DNA of 63,986 nt, counting the filler, from Choristocarpus tenellus KU-1152 (lineage: Eukaryota > Protista > Phaeophyceae), in the NCBI GenBank assembly GCA_964200185.2. It is 10 parts of 10 records of this genome, joined end to end, with 100 filler letters (N's around TTAATTAATTAA, not from the genome) between each part and the next. Parts side by side here need not be neighbours in the genome. Positions count along the whole stretch, not along the records: positions 43,924 to 53,885 come from CAXNAD020003241.1; 9 more parts are not named here. One strand, 5' to 3'. Positions 25,790-53,499 of this stretch are shown piece after piece. Position numbers and translations under genes: made by a program. Below the pieces are notes generated by a model. That model was not told the DNA's origin, did no database searches, and worked only from the letters and a program-made list of their open reading frames with translations. The first letter of the stretch is position 1; every line of letters begins with the position of its first letter.

Positions 25790-27135
25790 CCTCTTGACAA
25801 ATCTGTCAGGTTGCTGAGAGAGCAAGCACTCATCATCATCATGGAACACGTTACCGTGGAAGGGGTACTTCAAAGTCCTCCTTAATGATAAGTCGATCAA
25901 CCTTAACTCTCATACATGCTGCTGAAGTCCTTGACCAACGATCCACAACTATAGCGCTCACCGGTGTATCATCACTCCTACTGGTGGATGTGGCTGAAGC
26001 AATACGAGCAATGGAAAATCATGTAGTGGGAAGGCTATCACAAGTCAAGATATTATTTGAGCTGAGATCATGTGCCTTGGTGTAAAGGAGGACGAGGGTA
26101 TTCTCCAGTGTTTCTACGAGAAGGTTGTGCGGGCTGTGTGGGACCAGGAAGTTGTGCTGCAGGTTTGGAGGAATGCAGTAATCACAATAGTCAAAGAAGA
26201 TGGAATAGACAGATCGTGGTAACTGCAAGGGCATCTCATTGTAACACACGCTGCAAATGTGCTTTGTAAGGTTGTCGCACAGTGTCTGGGAACCTATACC
26301 TGGAACTGGAGAGCTTCTTCATGACGAACAGTATGATGGTGGTAGCATGGTTTCCCACCCTGACACTCCACAGTGGACATGATGTACACCCGACTTGCCC
26401 TCCAAGAGCTCAGTTGAGAAAACCATGTACCTCTATACATCTTGTGTTTTACTTCAAAATATAGACATACATGCAGAACGTATTGACATGAATCTCTTTA
26501 ACACAATCTCTGGTGGGTATGGTGCTTGCCAAATTTGGAGTGCCTGAGTATATTATTTCAGTCATCTGACAATTCCATGATGAAAATTGTACAGACTGGT
26601 TTGAGGTTGGACAGGGCCTTCAACAAGGGTGTGTTCTTGCTCCCATCTCCTTCAATGTCTTCTTTGCTGTAGCGTGAAGTGTAGCAGCTAAAGAGTTCAC
26701 CTCTGACCCGACCATCCAGAGATCTTGTTGATATCATGAGAAGGACCACCAAAATCCAGGATAGGGGTGGAGAAGTAACTAGGAGCAGAATGACACTTTC
26801 TTACTTGAGTGGATCCTGTGGGGTATGTTTTATGCTGACGATGAAAATTCTGTGCCTAAGACCCAACAAGGTTTGGTGATGATGATAACAGTGATTGATT
26901 TGTGAAGGTGGCTAGGTCATTGTGCTGACTTTGTTGGAGTTGAAGATGAGATGTATGTGCCTTCACCCTCCCAACAAGGCTGCAGACATCATCAGATCTA
27001 GGTGTGGGGCCAAAATTCTGAGCTTGCTGACAAAAAAATTTACCTTGGATGCACCTTTGTCAGAGATGAAGCTGCTATCACCACCAAGATCAGCAGCACG
27101 ATCCAAAAAACTTGGAGCTGTTTCTTCAAATGCAT
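25790..27135 (+). mobile_element. RTE-clade LINE reverse transcriptase relic (heavily decayed)
   Basis: Fragments DVAEAIRAMEN, VWRNAVIT..GNCKGISL, WFEVGQGLQQGCVLAP, LWGMFYADD, YLG..TTKISSTIQKTW. Homologous to 50560-52400. Confidence 0.8.
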
Positions 27136-43923: not shown

Positions 43924-43974
43924 ATGGATACCCTGGTGCAGCCCCCCCCTCCCCCCCCCCAGATACTTTGAGCC
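43924..43974 (+). mobile_element. MITE family B right end at a contig start
   Basis: (C)n-AGATACTTTGAGCC is the exact reverse complement of GGCTCAAAGTATCT. A similar end occurs at 27739-27783. Confidence 0.7.
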
Positions 43975-44264
43975 ACAAGGATGCAGTAACATCCCTTCAA
44001 TATTGAGGGATACAGACCATTCTGCCTGTGACAAAATCACCGTATTTGCCATCGATTGGAATCTAAGAATAAAAATGCGTTCTTCCAGATTCTGAAATGA
44101 AACAATATACTACCTCTGTGCCAAAAGTCTGTGTTGCGAAACTTCTGGGCTCGCTGAGCGAGAAATGTGCCAAATCAAACGATAACCCCACAGAATGAAA
44201 TCGGGTTGACAATCTCAGCTTTCAGAAATGGTGGGGGTCGAGGATCATCAGGTACAAACTCGAG

Positions 44265-45440
44265 GTGCTTCAAGTCATCAAAGTAGGGGTCTTTTGGGGT
44301 GATGTTGAGGCCATAGCTGGGCACGTCGAGGGTCAGAACGTCGGCATAGCAACCCCCTCGTCGACCCCCCCGCGTAGGAAGGGTGCCCAAGTGTCCCTCA
44401 ATACCAGGGTTGCACTTGCAGTGTGGCACGCCTTCGCGATGGCCCCTGGTGAGCATACACTGCCGCGACACATTGAGTTGGCCGTCGTACTGGAGTTGGG
44501 AGTGTCCGAGCGTTACATGCGAGGGCTCTGGGAGGACATCGCCGATCAGCTCGCCAACGGCCACATGCTTGACCTAGGGCTGGCAGCACGTAGTGGGCGA
44601 CCTTCGGAGCTCACACCAACCAAGATGAATGCAATACCTAGTATCAACTCCGATGATCAGTCATCCACAGTGCGTCAGGTGACAATGAGGATGGCCACCA
44701 AGGGGCTCAATTATAGCACGAGCACCATAAACAGGTGGTTGGATTATATGACACGGATGCCGAATCGCCGCTGGATCAAACCCAAGCTTAAGTCGTGGCA
44801 AAAGGTATAGAGAATGGACTTTGTTTGCATTTAAGTGGACTGGAAACGTGGTGTGTACGCCTTCATAGCAAACACGATCCATGTGGCTGAAACATGGTTT
44901 TACATGATGGCTGATGGGGGAAGGGTTAGGACATTTCTGTATGAGGATGATAGTGACCTTCCAGGGTCCCCTACTGTGCAGTACAAGAGTCATATCCCCA
45001 AAACCATGATCATTGCAGTCAACGTTTGCCCAGATTCCGCTCACAGCTTTGATGGAAAGCTTGGCGTGTGTGCGCGCCAAAAATGGCAGACAGGACAAGC
45101 AAAAACCATAAAAAGGGGGATGTGTATGAGCAGGACTGTACTTTAGACCATTTGTTGTACAGGAAGTGGTACACAGGGGAGTTACTGCCTGCAATCAAGA
45201 CCAAAATTCCTTGGTTCCAGGGAAGCATATTGTTGTTCAGCAAAACGGTGCCACCCCCCACACAGGGAAGGGCAACTCGGAAATCTGGAAGACTGAAGGG
45301 TGGTTGATTAGACTTGTGACGCAGCCATCTAGCCCTTTTAGGGGTCTGTTTAAGAGGTACAATCAGGTGTTAAGGGCGCTGGGGGGGAACGATTTTGAGG
45401 TAGAGCATAACGGGACCAAAAGAAGGCAGTAGTGGGAGGG
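44265..45440 (+). mobile_element. Mariner-like (DD39D-type) transposase pseudogene
   Basis: SGRP..., RWIKPKL, IHVAETWFY (HIDEKWFY), KSHIPKTMIIAV..FDGKLG, RTSKNHKKG, LLPAIK, IVVQQNGATPHTG (QQDNA.PH), IRLVTQP, GGNDFEVEH. Stops, frameshifts and an internal deletion. Confidence 0.85.
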
Positions 45441-45732
45441 CAGGTTGGCAAGATCAGTCGAAGTAGGCCAAGCAACCACGGCGGCCCTGGATTGATGGGT
45501 TGATGGTGTCGAAAAATGGCAAGACATGGTCTTTTTATGTTAAATATTCCAAAGAATCCAATGCAAAGGTCCGTTTTGTAATCGGAGGTCATCCGAAAGA
45601 GCTACAACGTAACAGCCTAGACATATGGGATAGAGGGAGTACATAATAATATCAGTGGTGTGAAATACTTCGAAGCAATATACTCTGTGTTGTTGGATAA
45701 GAATATTACTTCGTTTGAGGATATGGAGAAAA

Positions 45733-45990
45733 GAGTAAAAGCATCTTAGAGAGTAGAGCCTGGTCCATTTGGGGACCAAAATCCAATGTTGCGATTTTGA
45801 TGTAATTTTGACTGTATCATGTTTGTTCGGTAGTGTCAATATCCTTGTTGTCACACCTTATCATAACATACACATTTAAGGTACTCCGAAACATTTCGGA
45901 GTAGGTAAAATGTCTTTAAAAACCCGTGGGACTCCAAGTCCCAAACGGATAAACAGGGCAAAACTCGTACCCTCTAAGATACTTTCACCC
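45733..45990 (-). mobile_element. MITE family A, full copy with AAA target-site duplication
   Basis: AAA|GAGTAAAAGCATCTTAGAGAGTA...TACCCTCTAAGATACTTTCACCC|AAA. Confidence 0.85.
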
Positions 45991-47751
45991 AAAGACACAA
46001 CATTATAAATCTGTACACCTATTAGAAATATATTAACATATCAAAATATAGCTCTTGGTTTGTACTTTATATAGTGCTATTCCAAAGTATACTGTACATA
46101 TATGGTACATAAAAATAGTAGTAGTAGTATTTGGACTCTGCATTATAGGTGTTCTAATAAGGATATGTCTGTATAATGAACCGAACATGAGGCAGCGTCA
46201 TTCTTGGTTGTTCCCATTCGGTTCCCTATATATTATACTTAGGAATATATAATGGAAACACTGACAGAGAATCGTATGACCACCAAAAAACGTGGGTGCT
46301 GCATTTCTGCATATCACAAAAAGCAAAGGGTATAAAAATCAAAACACAGGAAATCTCCTCCTTTTACCCTCCAAAGAAAATATTGCTCTAATTCTCAGGT
46401 AGTGCGTAGTACCTAATCAAGTCAGGTCATGCCAAAATGATGTCTATGGGACTCCTCTTGGTCTGGTTTTCACCTCATTCATCAACACTGGACATGATAG
46501 TTCATCAACCTTCACACCGCATAGTAGTATTGTAGCAGTAGTAGTGTAACATACATATTTCAAATATATGAAGCAAATAAGGCATTGACTCTTCGTCCAT
46601 ACCATCTATCTACCATATTGCCATCACACGGGAGCCACCCTTGACGGGAGAACCCTCCCCTCTACTATGGCAGCCATTACCACCCCCCTTTTAATTTGTT
46701 TTTTTGGCACATTGACAACAGATCTATCATATTGTGCTTGAAGTGAAGGGTGAAAGGCAAAAGCTGGGGCACTTTAACAGGCATGTTTACCCCATAATCC
46801 CCACACGAATTCTAAGCCATACAAACTCTAGCCGTTTTGTATAATATTATAGAACTCTTGACCTGTTGTTAAAAGTTGTAGTTGCAGCAGTGTGAGGTAG
46901 TCATTTACCACTATGCAGTTCATTCATGCTGCCATGAAATTGATGTATGTAGTTTTGCACAACCACCTAAATGATGACAGTTTGAATGGGAAGTGTATAG
47001 TTAGAGGCGATATGTTACCCCAAATGCAGTGCATACTCTGCAAAGCATCAATCTTTGAACAAAGGCTACATGATGGTGCAGATGAGAGTATCACACACTT
47101 TCTATTGTAAGTGCAACGTCAATAGAGAGGTCAAACATTTGGTAACTTATTGCAAAAAACGGTAGAGTCCTGTCAAAGTGCCCTGACTTGCACCTGCAAT
47201 CCTTCACTTCATGTAAAAAGAAGGATGAATCGGTTAGTCAATGCGCCACAAAAACAGATGGAAAAAATGGGGGGGGTTCAATCCTTAAATAGGAGGTGGG
47301 GGAATGGCACCCCCCTCCCCAAAAAGAAGAAAAGCACTTGCAAAATCAAACATGTATATATGCAACTTTTGCCTAGCTTGCATCTTCTCTTCACGGTAAA
47401 TCGACAAGAGAGATCAATCAATTCATGAACATGCCAACCTGTATCTACGAAGATTTACATTGATCAACCTCGACCAAAGCTCTGCTATCAATAGTTAGCA
47501 TACGATGCACAGCAAGGGCGCAGGAGAACACATAAAGTATGCGGCAGCAACCCCCACATGTGCAATAGGTACACTTTCCACAAGATCGGGACTAACACAT
47601 ACTGGAATGACGCAGTACTCCACATGTCAACATGTCAATAGCATGAGCGGCACACTTCATCCAGAAGTCTATCGGTAGCTATATCCTTCCCAGCATCACC
47701 AATTCTGCAAAGAAGGTCTCCTTCAAACGATAGGTGTTGCATATAGCATAC

Positions 47752-49978
47752 TCAAACCACAAGCCTTAGTGGAACGGTTTCAATCATGTTGTACATCGAT
47801 TCCAGGAACCCTCCTCCACCACCGCCCACCTCTTCCCTAAGTGGGGGAAATAACTCCTCTAAGGCTGAAACGAGTGCGGACTCGCTTTCAAAAACTCGCA
47901 CATGCGCCCCTGTAAACCCCAGGTGTGGGCGTGAATGTGAATCAAACAAGAGCCACGGCTCAGGGCAAGAATAGGCTGGGAAGCCTTGTACACTGCCAGA
48001 TGACTTGGTCTTTGGAGGTAAAAAAGCAACAACCTAATGTGACCCCAAAAGGGTTCAAGTTATCACAGAAGGCGGGACAGGAGGGGGGAATGTGGTGACA
48101 ATTAGCAAAGTGGATCATTGGCAATGCAACCTCTCTTTTGAACCACCACAATGATAGCAAAAACACAGTACACACAATCTTTCAGATGATCAAAATCTAC
48201 AACGAATATATATATATATATGAAAACAACTTAGCACATGCCCATTGTTCAAAGCAATATCAAATCAAGGTCATACATTGCAAAAACAAAAACTAGTCAT
48301 ACTCCTCTCACTGTCTCCGGTGGTTTAGTTATGGTGACTGCAGTATGAAAAGCATCCCCTCCGGCTCCTTCTCGGCAGTTATGCAGTAAAGTGGTGAACG
48401 AATTTGAGGAGCCTAGAACACCTTGGTAGACCCCAATACCAAGGGCACGTCTTAATCCCTCCTTGTACCTGTTGAATATGAGATCATTCAACATAAACAG
48501 GTTAGGATTTGGAATATGAAAACAAGAGTAAAGCGAACACAGAAACCCTGTTTGAGACGGAGATTATATTGAGGAAACATTCCCACAATACCTGGAATCA
48601 TGAACCCCAACACACAGCAGTAAAGGTCACAACAACCCTCAGTAGCAGAAGAGTAGATTGTTTGTGATCTGTTGTAAGTGTTGACATGTTCTAGAGTAGT
48701 GACCAACAGAACAAGTCGCCATGATGAGCTAAGTGATAAAAAATACTCTTTTTTAGTAGATACTAATATAATTTCATCTCCACAGATTTATCACACAACC
48801 AGGTTGGGTGATGGCAGGCAGCATAAACTTTCAAGATACAGTGGTACAGCTCTTTATCAATCACACAAAGGAATTCCTGTTCCCCATCAGTGGAAATGAG
48901 ATGATACATCACTAAAAGAAAGGTCTGTGTATGACCTTGTTTCAACCTCACTCAACCGTGTGCTTCACGAATATGAATGGATGTAACCAGTACACCTCGA
49001 TTGGTGCAAGGTTTATCTCCCATCAGGAATACACAGAGTATGCCAAGAGCAACAGAATGAGGGAGGCATCCCACACCCACGAGAACACATATTCAATTCT
49101 GTAAAATACGTGGGAGTATAACCTGTCTCTGTGATAGTAAATAACCAACACAGCAACTATTCAATATTATTGACACCTGGTTACACAGTCAAGCAGTTCT
49201 GGAACAGAAGTATGTTCTGCTTCAACCAGGCCACCAGCCACCACTGCTTCGTAGGTAATGACTCCTACCTCGACAATGCTCTAGGAATGGATGGGGGAGA
49301 TATGGAGAAGAGTGGAGGAGTCAACATTTTCGTACCGTATGCGTGTATTAGGCTTTGAGAAAGTACGCGTCTGATGCGATTGTTTTGATTTACACACAGT
49401 ATCAATAAGCTCCTGAACATATGAGACTTCATTTGAGTCTTCTCAGTTCACACTGGAATGCATCACCGCTACTATGCGTCGAATAGGGTGAAAGTAATCA
49501 CCGATATGGCGTCTGGTGTTGTGATGTCATCTGTGACCTCTTCCAAGGTTTGAGGTCTGTCTTGCAGTCGAGATAGCATCGCCATTGAAGCTTCGAGACA
49601 TATGCATGTGCATGCTGATCTTCCGTGCGGCAGGTCGTATTGACTTATCGATCCTTGGATAGCCTGGGATACGAACGATAGTTCAACGAGAGAAAAGAAA
49701 GACTTGGGGGTTGGGGTCCGTCCACAAAAGACTATTCATGTGCAAGCTGTCGTATACTCCAACACGTGCTACCACATTGAAGCACGTCTCAAGCTCTAAC
49801 ATTGACCCATAGGAGAAGCGCTCACCCGATAAGTTGTTTGTGGTGTGTTGTCGGCAGTACCTTGGAAGAGAAGGCTGTCGCAGGCTGCCTGGACATTCCC
49901 ATCATGCGCTTTTAACGCTGCCTTGGAGAGCTCTTTATCGAACCCCATACCTATCAGCATCTCAAGTTCCTCCGACAT
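47752..49978 (-). CDS. UBA domain + viral-tegument-like (VTD / peptidase C76-like) cysteine protease, putative deubiquitinase, 285 aa, 5 exons
   Basis: Exons 49978-49826, 49663-49502, 49280-49177, 48468-48312, 48033-47752, all GT-AG, phases 0/0/2/0, one open frame. N-terminal UBA (LIGMGFDKELSKAALKAHDGNVQAACDSLL), then QGSISQY..GRSACTCI (Q59, C69), EHTSVPELL, ITKPPETVV and LLFDSHSRP (D223, H225). Confidence 0.85.
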
Positions 49979-50559
49979 TTCCTATAGGTCTTTGTTGAAG
50001 GAGTAGGGGCGAGGAACATGAGTGGAAGAGGAATACGGTGAGGGTGGTTGACTATCGTACCAAGAGTAGATTATGCAGGTCTGCCAAGGCGCTACTACAC
50101 TTCTATTGTCGACTAACAAACGAAGAAAGTCATACTAAAGGCCGAGTAAGTAGAGGACAGGACGACCTCAACATGTGGGTATCAAGTAGCAACAATTGAG
50201 ATAAAATCAAACGCAAAGGGGACAACAACTGCGCTTACAATAGCAACTTTTCATCGTAGAAAATCAGAGGGGGAAGGGATGTCAAAGAGAGAGGTGATGC
50301 AATGAAAGAGAGCACCATCACATGGCTATGGCTGAAACTCCAAGTCGTTGAGGTAGGAAGGAAGGTGATTTAAACCTTCAAGTTTTATTCACTTAATTGG
50401 CATTATTTTTACTTCGACATCTTAAACTTTATTTTTATGATAACTCCATCACCGTGTTGAAGGTTGGTGAGAAACAGGTTAACCGAGCAAACCTCATCCG
50501 TCCCTGGGAATCAACCTGGTTTCTACCTACACCTGAAAGGGTTCGATGTGAAGAGGACC

Positions 50560-52400
50560 AGAGAGAGAAGCTACCAGAGCATCCGTGACCACTCTGGACA
50601 GATGCTCAGGGAATAAGCATCCGTCATGGAAAAGTGGAGGAGATACGTTACAGTGCTCCTCAATACCAAGTCGGTTGGTGTCTACCCAAGCAGTGCTGAG
50701 GCCCTCAATCAACTACCCACATTAATGGACTTCCTTACTTTACCAACAATGATGGAAGTGGGAAGGTTACGGGTTCCGAAAATCTTCCAGTTGGGCTCTC
50801 ATGACTTGTCCTACAGAAGGACGTGAAAATCCTACAGGGTTTCCATTGGACTGTTTAGGCTGTGCAGCGTCAGGAAGTTGTGCTACGAGCCTGGAAAGAT
50901 GTGGTCATCACCTTTGTTCCATATGAAGAAGTGCCACAATGATTGTGGCTACTATGGGCACCTCATTGGTGGCATGTGCTGGCAAAGTCCACCTCGAAGT
51001 TTTTGCACAGCAATTGGGGATTATCTGGAGAACATCCTTCGTCAGGAGCAGTGTGGTTTCCAGCTGCGGCGCTCTACACCGGACATGATGTCAACTGTAC
51101 GAGCCCGTCAAGAGGTTTGCTGGGAAAAGCATGTGCCCCAATTCATGTGTTCGTCGAAATATATGAAGCATACGACTCTATTGATGGTGACCTCCTGTGG
51201 GTTGTGGTGGCCAAATTTGAAATATCTCTGGAGATGATTGTTGTCATCAGCCAACCCCACGATGAAATGGTTGAATGTGTTCGCATAGATGATGTTGAGA
51301 GCACTGACTGGTTGGACAGGGCCTTTGGCAGGGGTGTGTTCTTTCTCCAATCCTCTTCAAATCTTCTTCACTGCAGGTCTAAGCGTGTTAGTTAAGGAGC
51401 ACAACTCTGACCCAGCCATCTTCAAGGACCTTGTTGTCATCAAGAGAGCGGTTGCAAACAACCAGATCAGAGGGGGATCACGAGGGAGTGGGACAACACT
51501 TAAGTGGCCTTTGTGGGGTATGCTATATGCAGATGATGCAGGCATTGTCTCCAAGACCCAAGGAGGTTTGACCAATGATTGACAGTGCTTGTGAAGGTGC
51601 CCAGACCATTCGATCTGACTGCATCAGAGTTAAAGACAGAAATAATGTGTCTTTGACCTCCTGATCAGGCTGTGGAAATCATGCAGATCCAGGCACAAAA
51701 CCAGACCAATAGGTGGACTGATAAGTCTATTTTACCTTGAGGAAACCATCAGTGATGATGCCACTACTATTGCTGAGACCAACTGGAAGATTCAGAAAGC
51801 ATGGAGTTGTTATTGTGAATATGACCAAGTGCTGTGTAACAGGACCTCAGGTGTCTCACTAGAGCTTGAGATTCAAATGGTTAGAGAGGAAGTGCTTCAA
51901 AGTTCTGTTGTATGGATATATGACATGTACACTCCACCAGGCTCATTATCTTCAGCTCCATTCTGTCACCACAATTTCCTCCTCCACTACATAGGTTTAG
52001 GCAAAGGGGAATACACTGATAATGTCCTATCATACAACGATGCACTTATGAAGAGTGGGTGTGAGAGTATCAAGGCAGTGGTGCCCAAGCGGAAGGCACC
52101 TATTTGCTGGGTCAGTTGCTTGTATGGGGGATGAACAACTTCCTCAGGTCTTAATGTTTGGGGACCTTGTGGATGGAAAATGGAATGAAGGTGAGCAGGA
52201 GAAGAACTGGTGGACATACCTCCAATATGACCTTGAGATCCTGAGGATTTTAGAATTGAGGGTTAGAGCACCAAGTGTCTAACCAACAGGGGTGGCATGA
52301 TTGTTTGACTGACAGCACAATAAACTTCATGGCTGAATGGCATACCAAGGAGTCTGTGACAGCCACTGTACATCGCACCAAAGCACCAGGTAAGGCTACA
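50560..52400 (+). mobile_element. RTE-clade LINE RT relic including the 3' coding end
   Basis: KWRRYVTVLLNTK, CGYYGHLI, ILRQEQCGFQLRRSTPDMM, FVEIYEAYDSID..LLW, LWGMLYADDAGIVSKT, LSYNDALMKSGCESI, QLPQVLMFGDL..GEQEKNWWTYL. Many frameshifts. Confidence 0.9.
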
Positions 52401-53499
52401 GAAGTCACCATCATTGCCACCATCACTGTGTGCTGTTTGCTGTTTTCTTTGTCCACTGATTTCCCTTCCATCCTTCTTTGTCGACTATCCTTTCTTTTCC
52501 CCATTCCATTTGTTCATTGGGTCATGGTGTTTTTCTTCTGCAGGTTCTATTCCTCCTCATTCTCTCATTAATAGTCCTGTTGCCTTTTCTCATGTAGTGT
52601 GTCTTTGGACTTCGTTTTCATCCTCGGGTCTGGGATTCCTCAGACTAATGTATTTAATGATACTGATGATTATAATTGAGACCTATTGGAGAAAAGACCC
52701 AAAACGTCCTTCTAGATAGCTTCCAAAATATAACATCTACTCAATTTCACTATCAATATTTGGTATAATCACAGAAGAACGAACAAAAGATCATCTCAAG
52801 CACCTCCTTGTTTAGTGGTGCTATGGAAGTTTGGTTCCAAGGCTCGGCAACTCACCTAACCAGAATCACACCTTTAGATGCCAAGTGAGGGAACACTTTT
52901 GTCAGCTCTGGCTTCAGCTGGGTCAATTTCGGGGAGATAGTAGGAGGTCCCATTCCTTACCACAAGAAAAGAACGGAAAAGGGTTCATCTGAAGGTCCCT
53001 CAGTTTAGGTTGTTGAGGGAGTGAAGGTAGACCCAACAAGGGGAGAAGGGGAAGAAAAGTTTACTCCGAAGAGAGACAATTGCATCACGATGCACATATG
53101 GGGCCTAACCAGGAATTACTTAACAATAACATTGAAGGTCATGAGGACAACCGAGACAAGATAAAATCAGTTAAGCTTCCAAAGTAGAGCTCGAATGGAA
53201 TGGGCTGCAAAAGAAAGCGAAAATGTGTAAGGATTGGAGGAGGAGAAGGTGGACTTCTTGCAAGTACCGCTGTTATGATTATTGTTACAAGGAGCCAAAG
53301 AAATGTTCCCCTGAGCTGTCGCTGAGGTGGCTCCAAGCCCCCGTTAGCTAAAGACAAGGATCACCCAACAGACGTTTGGTTGAGATAATGCAGGATCTCA
53401 TCTGTGCAGTGTATTAAGTTGAAAAATGACAACTTTGATTAAAATAGCAGAAAAATTGAATCGTAATTTCTTTCACAAACGTTGTTTTGCTTTTCCTTT

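Follow-up and report, generated by a model that had tools for sequence, protein, structure and literature searches.

The window analysed here is a stretch of 63,986 nucleotides, filler included, assembled from 10 parts of the genome of the brown alga Choristocarpus tenellus. On its minus strand it carries a gene of five coding exons separated by GT-AG introns, which join into an 858-nt coding sequence for a protein of 285 amino acids (Table 1). The spliced product is identical letter for letter to an NCBI protein of the same length labelled as an unnamed protein of C. tenellus (P0006), which was found with exon 5 as the query as one protein among 50 candidates. It contains Q59, C69, the motifs EHTSV (127-131) and TKPPET (187-192), and FDSH with D223 and H225. 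Three public sequencing runs of one study (X1, X2 and X3) cover the stretch. In X1, possibly the run from which the window derives, the whole stretch lies unspliced on one contig and X3 is without joints; X2 contigs skip all four coding introns exactly at the predicted sites and, in addition, one intron in the 5' UTR. The spliced joints and the high depth of the exon contigs suggest that X2 is RNA, though it is not recorded as such, and splicing support comes from this single run of a single study. The start codon is fixed by an in-frame TAG two codons 5' of the ATG. A preliminary description of the locus, made from the sequence alone, had given five exons in phase within 47752-49978, the resulting 285 residues and the places of the EHTSV, TKPPET and FDSH motifs, and the X2 joints bear out its four coding junctions. 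Its exon model, called complete, had missed the 5'-UTR intron and the exon upstream of it, which an X2 joint discloses.

Table 1. Exons, introns and encoded features of the gene, in positions of the window
Feature	Position	Strand	Content and basis
Upstream non-coding exon (extends to at least 50268)	50239..50268	(-)	X2 joint 49989/50239, 30 letters on the exon side
5'-UTR intron, 249 nt, GT-AG	49990..50238	(-)	X2 joint; intron ends read in the sequence
Coding exon 1, aa 1-51	49826..49989	(-)	11 nt of UTR, in-frame TAG, ATG at 49978
Exon 1 content: UBA domain (2-39), then linker	49978-49826 (CDS part)		MGF and LL motifs in the UBA
Intron, 162 nt, phase 0	49664..49825	(-)	Reading frame and X2 joint
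Coding exon 2, aa 52-105	49502..49663	(-)	Q59, Y60, R66, catalytic C69
Intron, 221 nt, phase 0	49281..49501	(-)	Reading frame and X2 joint
Coding exon 3, aa 106-140	49177..49280	(-)	H128 (invariant), P132, E133
Intron, 708 nt, phase 2	48469..49176	(-)	Reading frame and X2 joint
Coding exon 4, aa 140-192	48312..48468	(-)	L145, Q155-G156, TKPPET
Intron, 278 nt, phase 0	48034..48311	(-)	Reading frame and X2 joint
Coding exon 5, aa 193-285 and stop	47752..48033	(-)	D223-x-H225, predicted helix 267-273 with Y273, N274
Likely 3' UTR, about 600 nt (end approximate)	47154..47751	(-)	X2 contig 47154-48033

The gene is present as a single copy within the window, at a depth of 17.8 in X1. A high-copy element is situated about 1.1 kb beyond its 3' end, and on the upstream side of the gene there is a remnant that is also repeated. 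The high-copy region (43950-45990), in which X1 depth rises to about 200,000 compared with 18 and many loose ends occur, has inverted arms of 21 nt (45735-45755 and 45968-45988), copies of which occur near 20.0-20.2 kb and near 30.6-30.8 kb, and includes an ORF (44202-44807) with a weak match to HTH_32 (E 0.025); it is likely a decayed DNA transposon together with a MITE-like element. The stretch 50350-52760 (+) faces the gene head to head at a distance of about 80 nt from the upstream exon and resembles 26605-27002; in X2 it has contigs reaching 52761 and, at about 50352-50463, a GT-AG joint. It has no Pfam match, and its broken motifs are presumably reverse-transcriptase-like; it may be what is left of a LINE, transcribed from a bidirectional promoter common to it and the gene. 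At E<=0.001 Pfam gave no match in any of the long ORFs of the window (63/63), a scan that short exons would escape, and no Helitron domain was found with it in or near the gene. A Helitron-borne protease of the VTD family, lying inside a RepHel ORF, was considered and rejected, the gene being a stand-alone spliced one of 285 aa.

Fold and active site of the catalytic domain

Pfam gives no match on the catalytic domain of P0006, whether searched whole or exon by exon. Among PDB sequences the top match is 8ADB (Wc-VTD1 of Waddlia), with E 1.5e-4 for the single P0006 sequence, 5.8e-16 for a 9-sequence profile and 5.6e-29, over chain residues 9-214, for a 136-sequence profile; neither 8ADD nor 2J7Q occurs among the 52 matches to E 1 with the smaller profile or among the best 60 of the 79 with the larger. 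AlphaFold2 models of P0006 reach pLDDT 80.2 with 9 sequences and pLDDT 89.5 (pTM 0.83) with 136, and for both models Foldseek returns only six matches at E<=0.001, all of them chains of Wc-VTD1, M48 and DrT1-VTD2; with the 136-sequence model 8ADC ranks first and the VTD/M48 matches span E 1e-9 to 6e-6. VIA-align yields Z scores of 21.2 for 8ADC (rmsd 2.6, 187 aligned residues, 28% identity), 20.3 for 8ADD, 19.5 for 2J7Q and 19.1 for 8ADB, with rmsd 2.5-2.8 over 182-187 residues for the VTD set, and the next folds follow at 11.3 (AvrPphB) and about 7 (UfSP and Josephin). A structure search without Foldseek, run with the first model, places the same three entries on top, 8ADD (19.5) ahead of 8ADB (18.3). 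These fold scores do not separate subfamilies, 8ADC and 8ADD lying within 1 Z of each other in VIA-align. In the predicted models, residues 50-283 of P0006 adopt the VTD fold (peptidase family C76), an M48-like papain alpha-beta-alpha arrangement, as had been anticipated from the sequence, and the protein almost certainly belongs to the VTD family.

In the profile alignment C69, D223 and H225 of P0006 align to C313, D440 and H442 of Wc-VTD1, and the structural alignment over the full length suggests that the triad C69/H225/D223 is juxtaposed in three dimensions. All four of Q59, C69, D223 and H225 are present in 194 of 196 family domains, a set from which 8 near-duplicates or fragments were removed and to which the second domain of P0097 was added; in the remaining two a gap stands at the Gln position. 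In an alignment of 148 sequences (from 156, 8 having been dropped for length) C69, H128, K188, P190, E191, D223 and H225 are invariant and Q59 occurs in 147, and across the domain set H128 and R227, both outside the triad, are found in 196/196 and 193/196 domains, respectively. In M48, a second His is able to partly replace the catalytic one (PMC9741609). The intact active-site signature read in the preliminary description is a property of the family, though of its wider pattern G-S-x-S-Q-x(9)-C, in which Q59 and C69 are in place, only S58-Q59 of G-S-x-S-Q is family-conserved. On its own the D-x-H order is no distinguishing mark, being used by UFSP2 and ATG4 as well (PMC9741609). P0006 is likely an active DUB.

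Relatives and the UBA domain

At E<=0.001 the 9-sequence profile matches 1032 cluster representatives, 149 of them at 1e-30, and the best 150 of the 1032 were considered; because this profile includes the UBA, the selection leans towards UBA carriers, and some of its weakest matches may be to the UBA alone. The catalytic domain is covered to at least 70% in 203 of 214 sequences, and in this UBA-biased search 176 of the 203 have an upstream UBA by a profile of our own, while the other 27 include fragments, UBA_4 proteins and RanBP2-type zinc finger proteins. Pfam finds PF00627 in 116 of 136 relatives. The orthologue search proposed at the outset returned named relatives in brown algae (Ascophyllum, Ectocarpus spp., Scytosiphon, Pylaiella and Hapterophycus), diatoms (Detonula, Thalassiosira and Cyclotella) and Epipyxis, presumably a chrysophyte, and the Atlas holds two UBA-bearing clusters, at 0.97 and 0.96, in which diatoms are the commonest phylum. 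In a tree with a weak backbone and an arbitrary root, which left out fungal, bacterial, Helitron and other reference VTDs, a support of 0.86 joins the brown algal proteins with one further sequence, and a 22-member clade (0.998) contains the named diatom proteins. This would fit vertical inheritance in ochrophytes and is silent on the first arrival of the family.

Several relatives have unusual architectures. P0097 (2018 aa) has two VTD domains, P0063 two UBAs, P0207 a RanBP2-type zinc finger, and P0108, P0142 and P0198 a UBA_4 for the UBA; P0206 is a thiolase fusion or a gene-call artefact. The sole match among bacterial and archaeal genomes is a UBA-VTD gene on a contig filed in an Alphaproteobacteria bin (L002:2938-3840 (+)); it was rejected as a bacterial member, since it has the UBA and groups with algal-type sequences, and is probably misbinned eukaryotic DNA. 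A giant-virus bin, GVMAG-M-3300023179-49 (L001:79-4140 (+), also L003), contains an ORF of at least 1353 aa with a VTD domain in which the Gln, Cys and D-x-H are present, the Gln being misaligned by MAFFT and aligned by hhalign. Other parts of this ORF hold a USP (UCH) domain, a histidine-phosphatase domain, a weak match to an NBR1 Ig-like domain and a CxxC...CxxC finger that is RanBP2/NZF-like by eye, so that two DUB classes occur in one protein of a putative viral contig. Scanning viral contigs with its VTD domain returned the same contig and no further viral copy, and a literature search returned no paper on a giant-virus VTD, PMC13365592 dealing, in the part available, with another DUB type.

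Residues 2-39 of P0006 match the UBA family PF00627 with 30.7 bits (Pfam cut-off 22.4), which confirms the N-terminal UBA claimed earlier, and the AlphaFold2 model predicts helices at 3-10, 15-24 and 29-39, a three-helix bundle. The MGF loop and the LL motif form the face by which UBA domains bind the Ile44 region of ubiquitin, and in the 148 aligned sequences these residues are kept in 130 (M11), 141 (G12), 135 (F13), 122 (L36) and 122 (L37). Among single-sequence matches to this UBA are NUB1 UBA domains, weakly (E 0.008-0.012) and with other UBAs ranking higher when profiles are used. In the 172 relatives measured, the spacing between the UBA and Q59 ranges between 6 and 85 residues, with a median of 32, which favours the UBA as a tethered targeting module. 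In the seven brown-algal-clade proteins listed the UBA ends 14-19 residues before Q59, and the UBA-VTD linker shows little conservation within the brown algae (0-27% identity). The UBA_4 or RanBP2-type zinc finger found in place of the UBA in some relatives suggests, in turn, that the targeting module is exchangeable.

Chain preference and competing explanations

The VTD family, its K6-specific subfamily and stramenopile members were already described by Erven et al. 2022 (PMC9741609), so that the earlier idea of an undescribed system is not supported. In the protist/fungal/bacterial group, tested members prefer K6 chains and have a C-terminal alpha9 helix, and K6-type VTDs are considered to have entered the alveolate and stramenopile ancestor (PMC9741609). 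The eukaryotic K6-specific VTDs assayed come from mushroom-forming fungi and an amoeba (PMC9741609, PMC10643670), and, as far as the accessible parts of PMC9741609 describe them, the VTDs assayed there include no stramenopile member. Nf-, Si- and Sl-VTD do not react with Ub-PA and yet cleave K6 di-ubiquitin (PMC9741609), as holds for SnVTD (PMC10643670), and the accessible text of both papers gives no reaction of these four with the NEDD8-PA probe either; the probe labelling proposed in the preliminary description is therefore an unsafe test, since a missing label would be no argument against activity. The feature that appears new is the UBA-VTD fusion, which was not found in the literature searched. 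A word search of PMC9741609, main text and three supplements, gives 0 occurrences of 'UBA', a point on which its figures, among them the domain cartoons of Fig. 1b, and its source data may bear, and literature searches, with most subscription journals outside their coverage, turned up no publication that treats a VTD of algae or one with a UBA.

With the K6-specific VTDs (Wc-VTD1 8ADB/8ADC, SnVTD, Nf-, Si- and Sl-VTD) P0006 shares the fold, the order Q...C / D-x-H, the EHTSV motif, aromatic residues at the Y301 and F483 positions, a basic one at K310 and a predicted C-terminal helix, but it has an N-terminal UBA where SnVTD has a transmembrane segment and the fungal proteins an RBR ligase. The herpesvirus tegument DUBs (M48 2J7Q, UL36, BPLF1; PF04843) and the Helitron DrT1-VTD2 (8ADD) have the same fold (Z 19.5-20.3) and the mirror-image Cys / Asp-x-His site in common with P0006. 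In contrast to it, they show K48/K63/K11 and NEDD8 activity, are without alpha9 helix, lie in a viral or transposon context and give no profile match at the sequence level in the matches listed; PF04843 matches one of 136 relatives and not P0006. In structural alignment identity is 26-28% to Wc-VTD1 as against 14-18% to the viral/Helitron VTDs, to which P0006 is by this measure less close in sequence than to Wc-VTD1. The tegument enzymes, chosen in the preliminary description as the closest frame, thus give way to the K6-specific Wc-VTD1 as the nearest solved relative, in place of K48-type viral enzymes. A UBA likewise accompanies a cysteine DUB in TgOTU9 and Cezanne/OTUD7B (PMC10038098) and in USP5 and USP13 (PDB matches), although their catalytic families (OTU, USP) are unrelated to VTD, and YopT/AvrPphB-like proteases and UFSP/ATG4 share a papain-like core at the far lower fold scores given above.

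Residues linked to K6 cleavage can be followed through the alignment, in which 8ADB chain position + 278 equals the numbering of PMC9741609 (the catalytic Cys of Wc-VTD1 being C313 in its legend and Cys319 once in its text). Mutation of Y301, D306, K310, F384, A392, Y472, L481 or F483 of Wc-VTD1 impairs K6 cleavage, E363 and L481 are essential, and E363A inactivates the enzyme (PMC9741609). In P0006, Y301 corresponds to Y60 (Y/F in 192/196 domains), K310 to R66 (R/K in 134/196), F483 to Y273 (Y in 189/196), F384 to L145 and N364 to E133. Unlike in Wc-VTD1, D306 is replaced by P63, L481 by S271, A392 by Q155 and E363 by P132, a position acidic in 173/196 relatives, and Y472, likewise not conserved, falls on a poorly aligned stretch near E259. 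Of the acidic pair contacting the RxR tail of ubiquitin (D376/E377 in DrT1-VTD2, E363/N364 in Wc-VTD1; PMC9741609), P0006 therefore retains the second position as E133. At the place of the K6-type alpha9, both AlphaFold2 models predict a helix (267-273) of 7 residues compared with 13, sitting behind a Gly run, and the structural alignment extends to Wc-VTD1 residue 493; alpha9 itself has little sequence conservation (PMC9741609). The best structural neighbour of P0006 in the Atlas is a Basidiomycete RBR-ligase cluster (TM 0.74), in agreement with the published K6-specific VTD-RBR architecture, and by Atlas features the clusters ranked highest (0.96) are dominated by arthropods. On the basis of the Wc-VTD1 sequence match, the counterparts of K6-linked residues and the C-terminal helix, P0006 would somewhat probably prefer K6 chains.

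The reading we prefer, with a probability of roughly 0.55, is that the spliced gene encodes an N-terminal UBA joined to a VTD cysteine protease that is likely a DUB, probably K6-preferring, with the UBA serving avidity or targeting. By analogy with Wc-VTD1, C69 would attack the isopeptide bond after Gly76 of ubiquitin, with H225 and D223 completing the mirror-image triad and Q59 forming the oxyanion hole, while L145/Q155, E133 and helix 267-273 at the C-terminus would carry the distal ubiquitin and Y60/R66 and Y273 the proximal, K6-linked one. With its MGF loop and LL motif the UBA may bind another ubiquitin and, tethered by a linker that varies in length, keep the enzyme on polyubiquitinated substrates, contributing avidity and targeting and not linkage choice. 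Because the protein opens at Met1 with the UBA, a cytosolic or nuclear location is likely.

It is possible, though unlikely, that the UBA of an active VTD DUB sets or changes linkage instead, either as an extra ubiquitin site that cleavage requires or as one that steers the DUB towards chains of the K48, K63 or mixed type. TgOTU9, in which UBA removal abolishes K48 di-ubiquitin cleavage (PMC10038098), offers a precedent, the short brown algal spacing sets the UBA next to a segment that in Wc-VTD1 is the proximal site, and L481, D306 and Y472 are not conserved; against this stand the conserved Y60 and Y273, the variable length (6-85 residues) and low identity of the linker, and the UBA_4 or zinc finger replacements, which suggest a swappable module. 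It is improbable that P0006 is a protease for NEDD8/RUB1 or another ubiquitin-like modifier, or that it acts broadly on ubiquitin and NEDD8 as viral and Helitron VTDs do. BPLF1 and the DrT1-VTDs cleave NEDD8 (PMC9741609), the fold is equally close to 8ADD and 8ADC, and NUB1 is among the UBA matches, but among solved VTDs the sequence resembles only Wc-VTD1 in the matches listed, the NUB1 match is weak and outranked, and, in the accessible text of PMC9741609 and PMC10643670, NEDD8 substrates give no reaction with any tested protist/fungal/bacterial VTD.

That the enzyme is weakened or inactive in C. tenellus and acts mainly as a ubiquitin-binding adaptor is very improbable. P132, at the position whose mutation E363A inactivates Wc-VTD1 (PMC9741609), and S271 in place of L481 speak for it, but Q59, C69, H128, D223 and H225 are all intact, E133 is retained at the position that matters more in DrT1-VTD2 (E377; PMC9741609), and the acid at 132 is also missing in five other named brown algal orthologues that keep the triad. 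It is extremely unlikely that the gene is a passenger of a transposon or endogenous virus. The VTD family has been proposed to have spread through transposons, the non-viral VTDs of Erven et al. lie mostly in Helitrons (PMC9741609), the repeats at ~43950-45990 and ~50.4-52.8 kb flank the gene, and one giant-virus bin has a related domain. However, the gene has five spliced introns, occurs once in the window and lies in X1 on one contig at a depth of 17.8, compared with thousands for the element beside it; none of the long ORFs of the window has a Pfam match at E<=0.001; brown algal and diatom proteins form their groups (0.86, with one further sequence, and 0.998), and the neighbours of relatives at other loci are ordinary eukaryotic genes. 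The gene looks like an old resident of ochrophyte algae. Its splicing, its algal relatives and the lack of a Helitron match in or near it support the resident gene of the preliminary description, but repeats lie on both sides, and introns speak for residence today, not for origin.

Possible implications for K6 ubiquitin signalling

The role of K6-specific VTDs has been called enigmatic and few K6-specific DUBs exist, while K6 chains have been linked to DNA damage, mitophagy and xenophagy (PMC9741609); literature also exists on atypical ubiquitin chains in RNA-protein crosslink repair. None of the present results connects the gene with any of these processes. The gene described here extends a known enzyme family and is no new kind of system. 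Its conservation as a small spliced VTD in brown algae (Ectocarpus spp. included) and diatoms would make K6 signalling testable by knockout in algae for which genetic tools exist. The UBA fusion would also allow a clean distinction, for VTD DUBs, between avidity and linkage choice as the contribution of an accessory domain. A stronger version, in which the VTD cuts only K6 linkages and the UBA is itself K6-selective, making the protein an ochrophyte reader-eraser of K6-linked ubiquitin, is rather unlikely; if true, it would bring to light an old algal pathway of K6 signalling and provide a K6-specific enzyme working on long chains together with a natural K6-binding module.
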